Shown piece by piece: positions 45,527 to 50,544 of a DNA stretch of 50,544 nt (position 1 is its first letter; each line of letters opens with the position of its first letter). Below the pieces are notes generated by a model. It had not been told where the DNA came from. It was given only the letters and a program-made list of their open reading frames with translations, and ran no database searches. Source of the stretch: a virus. The translations under genes and the position numbers were made by a program. The stretch covers positions 1-50,544 of IMG/VR virus record IMGVR_UViG_3300007352_000005, one strand, 5' to 3'.

Positions 45527-45901
45527 TTATGCCCTTATTCCCCTGTTAAAGGTCCATATTCTAACATGATTCCCTGATTTCCCATTAAATTGTGACTCGT
45601 CTCCTGTCCAATCGTTTACTTCCGCAAACGTCTCTAATGTGCTTCCAACTACAGCAGATATTAAGAGCTTACTTCTGTTCAGGTCAAAATTCTTACTACT
45701 AACCAACACTCTCTGCAACTGTTTGAAAAACTTAGGTGTCTTTGCACCGGATGCAAGATAGAATACCCATCCATGCAGGAGTGCAGTGGAGCAACTACCC
45801 GGTAACACTTCCAACATACACTTGCAGCTACCGTTAGCCGAATCATACACTAGCCTGTGCCTACCTTCCCCATATGCGTCGTTCTGTATTTTCAACGGCA
45901 T
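45527..45901 (-). CDS. hypothetical protein (124 aa), last gene of the amidoligase operon
   Basis: 4-nt gap to the ATP-grasp gene. Confidence 0.55.
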   Translation of the reverse strand: MPLKIQNDAYGEGRHRLVYDSANGSCKCMLEVLPGSCSTALLHGWVFYLASGAKTPKFFKQLQRVLVSSKNFDLNRSKLLISAVVGSTLETFAEVNDWTGDESQFNGKSGNHVRIWTFNRGIRA

Positions 45902-45905
45902 TGTC

Positions 45906-46697
45906 TTAGCTCACATATTGAAGGATAGTGTCACCATATTTCTCTGTGCAAATCTCGGTGAGTTCCGGGGCTGTGTTCACCTCTAACACATACGCACTAT
46001 GCGCTGTGGCTAGAACATCAACAGCTCCGAATGACAAACCAAGGGCACGAACAGCGGCAATAGCTGCGTTCTGACAGACAGCAGGGCAATTAACATTACC
46101 ACGATAAAGGCCCCATCCACCTGATGTAGTACGTACTTCCTGATTCACAGTACGTGCGTTATCACGAGGACGCTTCTGTTGAATGTCAATGATGTTGTTG
46201 AATACATGCACACGATACTCCGTGGTGTTAGGAATAAACTTAGTGTAGAGAGGGGCTGACTTATCCCAGAAGTCGTAGATAGTTGGGACAATTTCAACAC
46301 CATCTCCATCCCTGCCTTCCAAGTTCTGGCGCAAGACAGCCTTACTACCGGCCCGATACCATTCCACTACATCACGTGCTCTAGTAGTGTACGGCACAGT
46401 GGGTACATTACCTGCTGTAAAGAGCTGGAACGCAGTGAGTTTGTTCACGGCCTTCGCAATATCCCCACTCTTGTTAAACCAACGTGTACCACTTGCACGA
46501 CCTGCCCAATTAGGCGTATTACCACTACCCCATCCTACAATTAAATCATTGGGACGAGGGATGTAATGACGGTCAGGATATACACGGATACACTCTACAC
46601 CATCGTAGGAATTCTCCTCTATCTCCCTGTTAATGTACTCTTGGAGACGAATGGCACTCTTTGATTCCATCTTGTACGGATAAATAACGATTCTCAT
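45906..46697 (-). CDS. ATP-grasp carboxylate-amine ligase (RimK-like)
   Basis: TTEYRVHVFNNIIDIQQKRPR and GLSFGAVDVLATAHSAYVLEVNTAPEL. Confidence 0.75.
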   Translation of the reverse strand: MRIVIYPYKMESKSAIRLQEYINREIEENSYDGVECIRVYPDRHYIPRPNDLIVGWGSGNTPNWAGRASGTRWFNKSGDIAKAVNKLTAFQLFTAGNVPTVPYTTRARDVVEWYRAGSKAVLRQNLEGRDGDGVEIVPTIYDFWDKSAPLYTKFIPNTTEYRVHVFNNIIDIQQKRPRDNARTVNQEVRTTSGGWGLYRGNVNCPAVCQNAAIAAVRALGLSFGAVDVLATAHSAYVLEVNTAPELTEICTEKYGDTILQYVS

Positions 46698-46709
46698 TTC
46701 TCTCTCCTG

Positions 46710-48068: not shown

Positions 48069-49366
48069 TACCTACCTCCTGAAGGATTACGTGGCCCCTG
48101 ACCTGTTCTAATTGCCTGACTTCCGTCTCTTGCTTCTCGTTGTTCAATATCTCGAAGTCTCCTGAAATTTTCCAGTAGTTCTCTAGACCTAGCTATCGCT
48201 GCTTCCGTTTCTTCAGTTTGTTGTTCCTCTTCGTCGTCAGTCGGCTCATCTCTCCTGATAGGCATAGGATGTAGTTCTATCGTAGAATCTGAGGTAAACA
48301 TTGAGAAATGGGGTTCAGAAACTGTGAATCCTACGCTCTGATATGGCGACACTTTAATCTTTTCTGCTGCAACACTACCTTTCTTGTACGTTTCAGGCCA
48401 CTTGCGACGTACATAAACACCTAACGTACTGCCCTCAGGAGGATTTCCACTAGCTGACTTGGGCCACAATAGCTGTTGAAAGGGATTGTTATTCTTTATA
48501 GACTTAACAGAATACATAATCTTCTGTGCCTGTCTAATGCCTGATAGAATATCCTTCTCAATCCCTTCATACAAAAGACTTGCGGCAAATTCTCCGAACA
48601 CCTCGCTCATAACTCCTGAATACTTACGGTCAGATATGTACACAGGAAAGGTAGCTATGTTGAAGTTGGATTCAACCGCATACTTCTTAAGGGACATGAT
48701 GATGTTTATCCATAAAAGTATGTATTGAATATCATACGTACCAGCACAATGTCTGAACTCTACACTACCAAACTTAAGTAGAGAGCACAGGTTAAATGCA
48801 GCGTAGCGGTAGTCAGCCCCCAACACACGAGAGAACCTGCCGAGTCCGTCATCTTCTATATCTCCGATGTATTCAAAGATACCACCCTCTGCCTTGTAGA
48901 ATGGCAGACAGAATGGGTTATTATCTCTGCCGTTTCCACAGAACTTGAATAAAGGCCTCTCAAACACTGTATACAGAAGGATTAACTTATACAGTTCTTC
49001 CTCAGTAATATCTCTAACATCCAAATGAATGTGAACACTTGTACGTTCAGACATAATGGGAGGCAATGTCATAGCCTTAACTACGGAATCAAACTCTTTC
49101 AGAGCTAGGATTAAATCCTCCCCACACAAGGGAAACTTTAATACAAACTCAGTAGACCGCAAATCCCCTTGATTACGCAAGCTGTTGTCTGCGTGATGTT
49201 GCCAATAGGAATTCTCGTTCTCCCTTGGGATTTCCACCAGTCCTTCCATCTCCACTTCTACGCCTATAAGTGTGGCAGGAAGTAGTAAGGCAGAGTTACC
49301 TTTGTAATTCCTTATTTCTTTTGGCTTTTCTAGTACATTTCCTACATTTCTTTTCGCTGTTCTCAT
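48068..49366 (-). CDS. amidoligase (Amidoligase_2-like, glutamine-synthetase fold)
   Basis: LIGVEVEMEG, TSVHIHLDV and GSVEFRHCAGT. Acidic C-terminal tail. Confidence 0.7.
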   Translation of the reverse strand: MRTAKRNVGNVLEKPKEIRNYKGNSALLLPATLIGVEVEMEGLVEIPRENENSYWQHHADNSLRNQGDLRSTEFVLKFPLCGEDLILALKEFDSVVKAMTLPPIMSERTSVHIHLDVRDITEEELYKLILLYTVFERPLFKFCGNGRDNNPFCLPFYKAEGGIFEYIGDIEDDGLGRFSRVLGADYRYAAFNLCSLLKFGSVEFRHCAGTYDIQYILLWINIIMSLKKYAVESNFNIATFPVYISDRKYSGVMSEVFGEFAASLLYEGIEKDILSGIRQAQKIMYSVKSIKNNNPFQQLLWPKSASGNPPEGSTLGVYVRRKWPETYKKGSVAAEKIKVSPYQSVGFTVSEPHFSMFTSDSTIELHPMPIRRDEPTDDEEEQQTEETEAAIARSRELLENFRRLRDIEQREARDGSQAIRTGQGPRNPSGGR

Positions 49367-50010
49367 ACATACCCTATCTGTAGGTTATTGGAAATCCCTT
49401 CTAGTTCTTGGTGAAACATTCTGGAGGACTCGCTTAGTACTAGCTTACGTCCATCCACCATTCCAACCAGAGAGTTGTCATAGTAGACACCAAGTTTGTC
49501 TGAGCACGTACTTGTCAACAAAATGTTTGGCGATAGTGCTCTACACGCTGCCTCTCCTCTAATGATTTGTCTGATAGCTTCATCATAAGTAGGATAGTGT
49601 CGTTTGAACAGAGCCTCTACTACAACGGAGTGTCCTGCATTGATAGCTCTAAACTCATTTGGGAAAAACGCCAGCTCTCCTATCACTACCTCAGGAAAGT
49701 CTATCTTTAGTACAGACTTACAGAGTCCTCGCTTCCATTGTCGCAGAGGAAGCCGCTTCATGTGCACTGCTATGTCGAACACATTTATATATCCCAATTC
49801 TGGCGTAGGGTAGGTGATGTTATCGGAGACCAAAGTAATAGGATGCCACATCCCGTCTATTACTGTTGTTCCCAATATATTATACCTGTGCCCTCCACCA
49901 GTAGCTTGTATCTCGTTTACATACACTACCTTACCTTCACTTAGGCCAAGGCAGCCCTCGTAGTAATGTCTGTAATCATCTATACCTATAGGTTCCCGTA
50001 CAATAGGCAT
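49363..50010 (-). CDS. hypothetical protein (215 aa) between the two amidoligase genes
   Basis: ATGA-type overlap downstream and a 1-nt gap upstream. Confidence 0.6.
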   Translation of the reverse strand: MPIVREPIGIDDYRHYYEGCLGLSEGKVVYVNEIQATGGGHRYNILGTTVIDGMWHPITLVSDNITYPTPELGYINVFDIAVHMKRLPLRQWKRGLCKSVLKIDFPEVVIGELAFFPNEFRAINAGHSVVVEALFKRHYPTYDEAIRQIIRGEAACRALSPNILLTSTCSDKLGVYYDNSLVGMVDGRKLVLSESSRMFHQELEGISNNLQIGYV

Positions 50011-50011
50011 A

Positions 50012-50544
50012 TTACACCCTTACAGTTGGTTGGGAAGGCATACTCACTCCGAGTTCACGCATGAGCATAGAAGCTATCTTCGTGTCCCCTGTATTGATTG
50101 CCTTCTGAATCATAGCTGTTCTACCACTCCCGCGCAGATGCGACCACATATGGTCATAGTTGTTCATGGCGTTTACCGCTGCCCCAAACACCCACTTACG
50201 CAGGTAGTCCTCTTTAATCCAGAAATTCGAGAGCACTCGGTATTCAGCACCATAAGGCTTAGGACGGTATGCCCCTGCTTGCCCATAAAATCTACGCCGA
50301 CCCATTTGGTCGGGGTCAAGCAACACAGAAGGAAGTCCTAAGTAAATATCGCAAGCTGCGATTAAACGTATTCGAGTGGTGGGGGATTCGTCAGGGGAGG
50401 GAATACCTAAATGCACATGGCCTGAGGCCGTGCGTACGTTACCTAGAAGGGCGTACGTAGGTCTATCATTTTGCGTTAATGTCCATGCGTTATAGTCTGG
50501 AGTACATCCTATGTCCTTAGCCTGTGGATGTTCCAGATATTTGT
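50012..50544 (-). CDS. COOH-NH2 ligase, C-terminal part (same gene as 1..406; 50446..50544 duplicates 1..99)
   Basis: GHVHLG and GAEYRVLSNFW motifs. The reading frame stays open to the window edge and continues in frame into 1..406. Confidence 0.6.
   Translation of the reverse strand, partial: KYLEHPQAKDIGCTPDYNAWTLTQNDRPTYALLGNVRTASGHVHLGIPSPDESPTTRIRLIAACDIYLGLPSVLLDPDQMGRRRFYGQAGAYRPKPYGAEYRVLSNFWIKEDYLRKWVFGAAVNAMNNYDHMWSHLRGSGRTAMIQKAINTGDTKIASMLMRELGVSMPSQPTVRV
50446..50544. repeat. 99-bp terminal overlap identical to 1..99 (circular assembly closure)
   Basis: Base-by-base comparison of both ends. The repeat lies inside a coding sequence. Confidence 0.95.

Follow-up and report, generated by a model that had tools for sequence, protein, structure and literature searches.

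The virus record IMGVR_UViG_3300007352_000005 of IMG/VR was analysed over its full length of 50,544 nucleotides (hereafter the window). On its minus strand it carries a block of eight co-directional genes, G1 to G8. This block is a new and divergent representative of a phage cassette that is known but functionally unsolved, and some of its accessory genes are specific to its lineage. The block is probably the window's version of the amidoligase cassette of the phiEco32/LUZ24/PA11 type, a pathway of gamma-glutamyl or amide assembly and trimming that would use glutamine and glutamate. The encoded enzymes have recognizable folds with intact active sites, and the gene order and the joint occurrence of the cassette genes are conserved among phages.

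According to later papers which cite it, the 2009 survey of Iyer, Abhiman, Burroughs and Aravind was the first to note this cassette, whose enzymes are annotated as a COOH.NH2 ligase, an amidoligase, a glutamine amidotransferase plus an enzyme of the ATP-grasp type. A preliminary description of this DNA had named that survey, and rightly so. In the papers on the genomes of tf, UFV-P2, Privateer, the OM43 phages and ZRK32 the cassette genes are only listed or speculated on, and neither a product nor a target is reported in the searchable literature, as the description had likewise said. A cassette of five to eight genes which over 300 sequenced phages from several families share, including phage genera used in therapy against Pseudomonas and E. 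coli, and which has had no known product for more than 15 years suggests a missing piece of phage biochemistry. The window contributes the extent to which the cassette diverges and the new accessory families G2 and G8. It adds no testability; the cultured carriers LUZ24, PaP3, PA11 and phiEco32 are the easier systems.

Organization of the gene block

The two ends of the window share 99 identical bases, so that the genome is closed or terminally redundant and, once trimmed, measures 50,445 bp. An operon across the contig junction had been recognized before, while the duplicated ends had gone unnoticed. With the ends trimmed, the block of eight open reading frames (ORFs) runs across the junction, and G3 is read from 406..1 and then from 50445..50012 to give 279 aa. 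If the ends are joined untrimmed, the frame of G3 is kept and 33 aa are duplicated. A linear ORF listing yields just a 134-aa fragment of G3 (50012..50416), so that the expected splitting of the block did occur; the further expectation that annotation would miss the cassette was not borne out, since it is already annotated in many phages. The eight co-directional ORFs proposed earlier could be confirmed on the minus strand as follows.

1235..1951, minus strand: G1, class I glutamine amidotransferase (GATase) fold of the Peptidase_C26 type, 238 aa (Pfam, PHROG)
421..1254, minus strand: G2, lineage-specific protein, 277 aa, with the motif QLFPFCWCRD
1..406, minus strand: G3, N-terminal part, phiEco32-type COOH-NH2 ligase (Pfam and PHROG on the joined ORF)
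50012..50544, minus strand: G3, C-terminal part (bases 50446..50544 duplicate 1..99)
49363..50010, minus strand: G4, conserved cassette protein, 215 aa, beta-rich (PHROG 11055)
48068..49366, minus strand: G5, Amidoligase_2-like ligase of the glutamine synthetase (GS) fold, 432 aa (PHROG 7469)
46710..48068, minus strand: G6, Cys1 N-terminal nucleophile (Ntn, class II) glutamine amidotransferase with zinc ribbon, 452 aa (Pfam, PHROG)
45906..46697, minus strand: G7, RimK-like ATP-grasp ligase, 263 aa (PHROG 2599, Pfam RimK)
45527..45901, minus strand: G8, small protein, 124 aa, with the motifs GSC..LH(G/D), W and N.KSGN
50446..50544, no strand: 99-bp terminal duplicate of bases 1..99, which marks a closed or terminally redundant genome

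The genes indeed touch or overlap, with overlaps of 1-20 nt or gaps of 1-14 nt. G1 and G2 overlap by 20 nt, G4 and G5 by 4 nt, and G5 and G6 by 1 nt, whereas gaps of 14 nt (G2/G3), 1 nt (G3/G4), 12 nt (G6/G7) and 4 nt (G7/G8) separate the others. A scan for intrinsic terminators on the minus strand inside the block revealed no strong one, and the GC content of the block (0.439) is close to that of the genome (0.437). The block appears to be a middle-gene operon just upstream of replication genes on the same strand. Its arrangement is far beyond chance, and same-order orthologous blocks are found in three independent metagenome contigs (L040, L041 and L042).

The five enzymes

Searches of Pfam, PHROG and NCBIfam support the three ligase folds and two amidotransferase-type folds that had been read from the sequence. 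All motifs quoted in that first reading are present and fall on conserved columns, which are defined here as columns of the family alignment (15-38 homologues per family) with at least 85% identity.

The joined ORF of G3 matches the phage COOH-NH2 ligase type 2 family of Pfam (PF14395; E = 4.4e-13, 49.5 bits, cut-off 25) and PHROG 3815 (3.7e-77). It also shows some affinity (3e-4) to PF04107, GCS2, which is the glutamate-cysteine ligase family. The residues D18, E20, E59, H145, H147, E203 and R205 are conserved, and 29 columns are invariant among 14 lineages.

The second GS-fold protein, G5, matches PHROG 7469, "amidoligase enzyme" (5.7e-56), and phmmer ties it to tf_21 and PA11 gp007 with E-values of 9e-17 to 5e-30. 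By orthology G5 is the predicted amidoligase of the cassette, without reaching the PF12224 model, to which its L041 orthologue has a weak match (Amidoligase_2). Conserved are E37, E39, H112, H114, E203 and R205, that is the motifs E-x-E, H-x-H and E-F-R. The ligase domain covers approximately aa 30-300 and is followed by a low-complexity acidic/basic C-terminal tail. C-terminal tails rich in Glu, Asp and Tyr (e.g. ...EEYYDEE) were found in 19 of 75 G5 homologues, for example L004:5414-6643, L020:10336-11328 and L039:8950-9981. Such tails are absent from the homologues of G3 (0/92), G4 (0/61) and G6 (0/82) and are rare in those of G7 (1/72) and in background ORFs (10/469, 2%). The G5 protein of the window has no terminal acidic tail and carries an internal acidic stretch, RDEPTDDEEEQQTEE. 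By analogy the tails of the homologues could be a substrate of the RimK-like ATP-grasp enzyme, or a docking tail as in T7 gp2.5 and SSB.

G6 matches GATase_6 of Pfam (6.2e-16, 59 bits, cut-off 27), GATase_7 (1.3e-10) and PHROG 4736 (8.1e-72), and its residues C2, R33, H114-N115-G116 and D134 are conserved. The protein consists of the Ntn domain, a middle domain without family assignment and a C-terminal CxxC...CxxC zinc ribbon. In this ribbon (46710..46850) 22-28 aa lie between the two CxxC pairs and include a conserved Trp; most lineages retain it, and the Grimontviridae G6 proteins (L037, L038) have it in triplicate. The NCBIfam matches of G6 to GlmS, AsnB and PurF cover the N-domain only and are far under the cut-offs.

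The third ligase, G7, matches PHROG 2599 (5e-61) and, just at the cut-off of 21, the Pfam model RimK (2.4e-4, 21.2 bits). Its best Pfam, NCBIfam and PDB matches all come from the group of RimK, the S6 alpha-L-glutamate ligase, and the nearest solved structures are the alpha-L-glutamate ligases 7qyr and 7qys (E = 4e-4). Many G5 homologues have acidic tails similar to the substrates of RimK. In contrast to RimK itself, G7 scores 30.5 bits against an NCBIfam rimK_fam cut-off of 143.4, in an alignment of only residues 209-249 (about 40, C-terminal). The conserved residues E160, R162, K175, D227, E239 and N241 include those for Mg and ATP binding.

G1 had been described as a class I GATase or gamma-glutamyl hydrolase. 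The fold could be confirmed, and between the two functions the Peptidase_C26 model (PF07722; 2.6e-21, 76.8 bits, cut-off 20.5) outscores the generic GATase model (PF00117; 1e-10, 42 bits), which suggests that G1 may trim instead of donating ammonia. Peptidase_C26 is the family of PuuD and of the folate gamma-glutamyl hydrolases. G1 further matches PHROG 7218 (1.5e-37), and the triad Cys100-His209-Glu211 is conserved in the family alignment. Its NCBIfam matches, which include gamma-glutamyl-CDP-amidate hydrolase and PuuD, are all below threshold.

Conservation of the cassette among phages

A collection of 50,697 phage records was searched by tblastn with the window proteins. At that sensitivity 319 records were found for G3, 321 for G5, 329 for G6, 255 for G7 and 65 for G1. 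The breakdown by genus is nearly identical for G3, G5 and G6: Pseudomonas (about 120), Escherichia (about 93), Vibrio (22), Aeromonas (11), Proteus (8), Salmonella (7) and Cronobacter (6). The core order G3-G4-G5-G6-G7 recurs in about 320 sequenced phages and about 100 fetched loci, with PaP3/LUZ24, tf, PA11/CVT22, the Grimontviridae and an Alcaligenes phage among the carriers. Co-conservation, on which the first proposal had been staked, thus holds for the core, whereas the complete eight-gene unit occurs only in the window lineage (L041/L042).

The same order is annotated in tf, Alcaligenes phage QDWS535, CVT22, PA11, PKM.Lu.22.1, Privateer and Slicky01. In six of them (tf, the Alcaligenes phage, CVT22, PA11, PKM.Lu.22.1 and Slicky01) the cassette lies upstream of primase/helicase genes, from which 0-3 kb of small or unannotated ORFs separate it; the stretch fetched for Privateer ends at nrd genes.

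Family hidden Markov models (HMMs) were run over 100 fetched loci, and the tallies are taken from the 43 loci with enough flanking sequence. G3 is present in all 43, G6 and G7 in 41 each, G5 in 39, G1 in 32 and G4 in 31, where it stands between G3 and G5. A gamma-glutamyl cyclotransferase (GGCT, of the GGACT/AIG2 kind) is encoded in 25 loci, while G8 was found in three and G2 in one. In the six-frame translation of the window the GGCT family HMM detected none (best E 1.2). A reduced cassette in L063, L066, L071, L073 and L081 consists of G3, one or two copies of G1 and GGCT, and it contains no amidoligase, Ntn-GATase or ATP-grasp gene; this suggests that G3, G1 and GGCT form a minimal functional triad.

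The phiEco32, LUZ24-PaP3, tf and PA11-CVT22 cassettes share with the window the five families in the order G3-G4-G5-G6-G7, often a class I GATase gene upstream, and the placement ahead of primase/helicase. The window differs by its lineage-specific traits, namely the orphan G2 between G1 and G3, the small Cys/His-motif protein G8 after G7, and the lack of the GGCT/AIG2 gene which most relatives carry.

The nearest relatives are three Logan metagenome contigs, of which L041 and L042 contain all eight genes in order and L040 starts inside G3. Protein identity within these same-order blocks ranges from 31 to 84%. Compared to L041, the enzymes are 57-75% identical and G2, G4 and G8 only 31-40%; this faster divergence fits specificity or adaptor roles. 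A search for nearly identical DNA with the block in the 50,697 phage records gave nothing. In IMG/VR the identity of G3 to its nearest relatives does not exceed 45%, and the cassette proteins share 25-45% identity with those of any sequenced phage.

In GTDB, G3 matches were found at 59 loci (L043-L101), mostly contigs of metagenome-assembled genomes (MAGs), many of about 40-55 kb. These contigs are assigned to phyla as disparate as Saccharibacteria, Bacteroidota and Pseudomonadota, and one to an archaeon, and they are probably phage genomes mis-binned into MAGs. The G3 family therefore appears to be essentially phage-restricted. The contigs L044 (86 kb) and L078 (104 kb) are longer and may represent prophages.

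This distribution bears on the view that the genes are ordinary auxiliary metabolic genes which boost the nitrogen, glutamine or glutathione metabolism of the host. It was proposed for Phage-ZRK32 (eLife 2024), where a growth-promotion claim rests on the annotations "glutathione synthase", "GlmS-like aminotransferase" and "gamma-glutamylcyclotransferase", and the OM43 phages were framed in a similar way. We consider it very improbable. No protein of the block comes near the NCBIfam equivalog cut-offs for GlmS, AsnB, PurF, GshB, RimK or PuuD (G6 reaches 38.7 bits against 418 for GlmS, and G1 22 bits against 266 for PuuD), and the acceptor domains of GlmS, AsnB and PurF are missing from G6. The enzymes travel with the phage-only partners G4, G8 and G2; scores so far below the equivalog thresholds together with such partners leave the nitrogen reading poorly supported. 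In addition, cellular genomes contain practically no members of the G3 family, and the carriers are strictly lytic phages with the cassette upstream of replication genes.

A putative gamma-glutamyl pathway

In the order of reactions that we infer for the amidoligase cassette, the GS-fold enzymes G3 and G5 and the ATP-grasp enzyme G7 would each couple a carboxylate, activated by ATP, to an amine via an acyl-phosphate intermediate. A unit derived from Glu or Gln, presumably gamma-glutamyl, would thereby be attached to an amine, elaborated and trimmed. G6 would hydrolyse glutamine and either supply ammonia or amidate an activated carboxylate, while its zinc ribbon and middle domain may dock on the acceptor or on partner proteins. 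The final trimming, in which the gamma-glutamyl group is taken off, would fall to the Peptidase_C26-type protein G1. Acceptor or target specificity would most likely come from G4, G8 and G2, the partners that evolve fast and are not enzymes.

Gamma-glutamyl chemistry is suggested by the fit of G1 to Peptidase_C26, by the GGCT of the relatives, by the reduced cassette and by the affinity of G3 to GCS2. Gamma-glutamyl cyclotransferases remove gamma-glutamyl groups. Comparative clues, which are the minimal triad, the acidic tails of the amidoligase and the zinc ribbon of the amidotransferase, narrow the hypotheses in the same direction. As for the acceptor, a small amine metabolite is our tentative first candidate; a protein seems rather doubtful, a nucleic acid unlikely, and the cell wall, which a later paper gives as the original speculation of Iyer et al., more unlikely still.

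Two known systems resemble such a pathway. In the Puu system of E. coli, PuuA is a gamma-glutamyl-putrescine synthetase and PuuD a gamma-glutamyl-GABA hydrolase, so that a handle is put on and taken off again. Like the window, Puu thus combines an ATP-dependent GS-fold ligase (PuuA) with a hydrolase of the Peptidase_C26 class I GATase fold (PuuD). However, G3 and G5 have no Gln-synt_C match and are not type-I GS proteins, G1 stays far below the PuuD cut-off, and the window cassette contains no oxidase or dehydrogenase. During butirosin synthesis a gamma-glutamyl protecting group is removed by the GGCT-fold protein BtrG. The likeness lies in the combination of an ATP-grasp ligase (BtrJ) with a GGCT-fold enzyme, the latter in relatives of the cassette, whereas the carrier protein, decarboxylase and acyltransferase of butirosin synthesis are missing from the cassette and GGCT from the window.

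Several observations weigh against the gamma-glutamyl pathway. None of the five enzymes reaches an NCBIfam equivalog cut-off, and therefore a substrate is not transferable by homology. A PDB sequence search detected no solved relative of G3 or G5. The Amidoligase_2 profile, a search with which had been proposed, is not reached by the G5 protein of the window, for which there is no Pfam match at E <= 0.1; the PHROG amidoligase match and the weak PF12224 match of the L041 orthologue speak for its membership. G1 could be an ordinary ammonia-donating GATase subunit and not a hydrolase. Since many loci encode both GGCT and G1, neither is a simple replacement for the other. Finally, the operon status of the block is read from gene spacing and the absence of terminators and not from transcripts.

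The accessory proteins and possible macromolecular acceptors

The three genes that had been left as unknowns stay without functional annotation, and no protein of the cassette matches the PADLOC defence models. A word-indexed protein search gave few homologues (2, 9 and 3), which made the alignments for structure prediction shallow, and when the G2, G4 and G8 alignments were run as profiles against PDB sequences, only noise came back.

G2 has no match in Pfam, PHROG, NCBIfam or PADLOC. When 1.84 billion representative proteins were scanned exhaustively with HMMER, homologues turned up in five other 50%-identity clusters, among which the motif QLFPFCWCRD is invariant. The only homologue cluster with retrievable context is that of L041/L042, where the orthologue (31% identity) lies between G1 and G3 in an otherwise co-linear cassette. 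The AlphaFold2 (AF2) model of G2 has a predicted local distance difference test (pLDDT) score of 72.6 and a predicted template modelling score (pTM) of 0.77; a fold search of the PDB gave no match (best E 0.12, template modelling score (TM) <= 0.18). In tf, the Grimontviridae and others, proteins of about 300 aa precede G3. They have no Pfam domains, and only two of them, both from Grimontviridae, are mutually paralogous. G2 as a diverged form of these proteins was rejected after BLAST, HMM and hhalign comparisons were all negative.

For G8, no family match was found in Pfam, PHROG or NCBIfam. Orthologues follow G7 in L040 (52% identity), in L041 (40%) and in L018, which has two copies, whereas the L004 group encodes a form of 170 aa between G6 and G7. 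The idea that G8 is a hidden GGCT was dropped, as it gives no signal with the Pfam GGACT model, which tf_25 matches at 1.7e-17. In L018, G8 stands alongside GGCT.

The only family match of G4 is to PHROG phrog_11055 (2.5e-17), a family without known function. With nine sequences as input, AF2 gave a G4 model of medium quality (pLDDT 68.5), which agrees with predicted structures of the phage homologues (TM 0.6-0.7). Against the PDB this model repeatedly gave sub-significant matches to eIF5A/EF-P/HEX-1 (E at least 4e-3, TM 0.2-0.3), which we treat as a lead and not as a finding. The strongest conservation is seen in P-x-x-G-x-x-N, followed by the motif RQW(K/R)R; residues 90-96, inside the window's copy of the latter, are modelled at low confidence. 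The alignment contains no invariant Lys, Glu or Cys that could be an acceptor residue.

These features are relevant to the question whether the cassette tags a protein. The cassette would then attach a peptide or polyglutamate adduct, Pup-like or RimK-like, to a protein of the phage or of the host, and G4 or the acidic G5 tail would serve as acceptor or adaptor. Two paralogous GS-fold enzymes encoded together recall PafA and Dop of pupylation, G7 is RimK-like, and the acidic tails that are specific to G5 resemble C-termini which are extended by ATP-grasp enzymes of the RimK and TTL types. eIF5A and EF-P are known for amide-linked side-chain modifications, which lends some interest to the repeated weak fold matches of G4 and to its conserved RQW(K/R)R motif. 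However, those matches remain below significance, the acceptor residue is lacking in G4, and the window's own G5 has no acidic tail at its end. A scan of the ORFs of at least 25 aa in and around the block found no small tag protein ending in GG[Q/E]; only the C-terminus of G5 ends in ...SGGR. In contrast to PafA/Dop there is no Pup-like tag, no proteasome context and no sequence similarity in the PDB search. The usual targets of GGCT and C26 enzymes are small gamma-glutamyl compounds and not proteins, which also speaks against tagging. We therefore regard protein tagging as improbable.

A wider and speculative reading, which we consider rather unlikely, is that the cassette is a counter-defence or takeover device which places a gamma-glutamyl or peptide-like amide adduct on a macromolecule, which could be phage DNA, tRNA, a component of the replisome or a protein akin to a translation factor. 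The modelled G4, with its weak likeness to eIF5A/EF-P and its conserved basic loop, would then be a candidate acceptor, and G2, G4 and G8 would be lineage-specific specificity subunits. The acidic tails of G5 would be a RimK-type substrate or an element for docking to the replisome. In that case G2 would represent a new fold.

Genome context and nucleic acid modification

The window represents a new phage lineage: for its terminase the identity to the nearest record does not exceed 45%, the nearest cultured phage being Alcaligenes phage QDWS535, and for its DNA polymerase the maximum is 38%. The late genes are encoded on the plus strand (7.7-29.9 kb), the early and middle genes on the minus strand. 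Downstream of the cassette and on the same strand follow genes for primase, DnaB, DNA polymerase, exonuclease and ribonucleotide reductase, as well as for two metallophosphoesterases, an HD dNMP phosphatase, a MazG-like dNTP pyrophosphohydrolase, a GNAT protein and several HNH endonucleases.

Such surroundings make it necessary to consider a hypermodification of nucleic acids, in which the ligases and the amidotransferase would equip the bases of phage DNA, or tRNA, with an adduct of the amino-acid or polyamine type as an escape from host nucleases. The cassette precedes replication genes in the six annotated genomes, and MazG adjoins it in tf; the window encodes a dNMP phosphatase and a MazG-like enzyme, and the conserved zinc ribbon of G6 would suit this role. 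RtcB and tRNA genes near the cassette in the window lineage and in Privateer point in the same direction. In viral contigs, amidoligase and amidotransferase genes were reported beside thymidine-hypermodification genes (Lee et al. 2021). The thymidine hypermodification clusters (Lee et al. 2018, 2021) likewise lie beside replication genes, sometimes with amidoligase or amidotransferase genes, whereas in the window neither a source of 5-hydroxymethyldeoxyuridine (5-hmdU) nor 5-HMUDK nor aGPT-Pplase could be found. Every early-strand ORF of at least 150 aa was scanned with PHROG and Pfam, and no base-activating enzyme emerged, that is no dUMP hydroxymethylase/thymidylate-synthase homologue, 5-hmdU kinase, aGPT-Pplase, TGT/DpdA or TET/JBP protein. 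Two of the scanned ORFs, of 208 and 178 aa, have no assignment and are short for such families. PaP3- and LUZ24-type DNAs have been restriction-mapped, to our knowledge with no resistance reported, which also argues against a modified DNA. Taken together, we hold hypermodification to be improbable.

Within the replication module, HNH homing-endonuclease genes are located on the minus strand at 31474..31809, 34542..34910 and 42802..43116. The ribonucleotide reductase gene has one HNH gene just downstream and one just upstream.

Between G1 and an RtcB remnant lie two small ORFs (1960..2284, minus strand), of which 2123..2284 is rich in lysine and arginine. Both are conserved in L041 (82% and 51% identity) and may therefore share the transcription unit of the cassette. 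The remnant is a 67-aa ORF (2319..2516, minus strand) which corresponds to the N-terminus only of the RtcB RNA ligase (PHROG 1075, 7.5e-17). Its identity to residues 1-56 of the L041 RtcB, which is intact with 396 aa, is 89%; the remainder of RtcB was not found in the window. Among the small ORFs the remnant is placed differently than the intact gene of L041. An intact RtcB is also encoded near the cassette in the Proteus phage Privateer.

Directly downstream of G8, and on the opposite strand to all its neighbours, lies an 84-nt gene for tRNA-Arg(TCT) (45116..45199, plus strand; ARAGORN, Rfam 55.4 bits). Further tRNA genes, both on the minus strand, are those for Arg(TCT) at 42516..42592 and for Ile(TAT) at 3293..3366.

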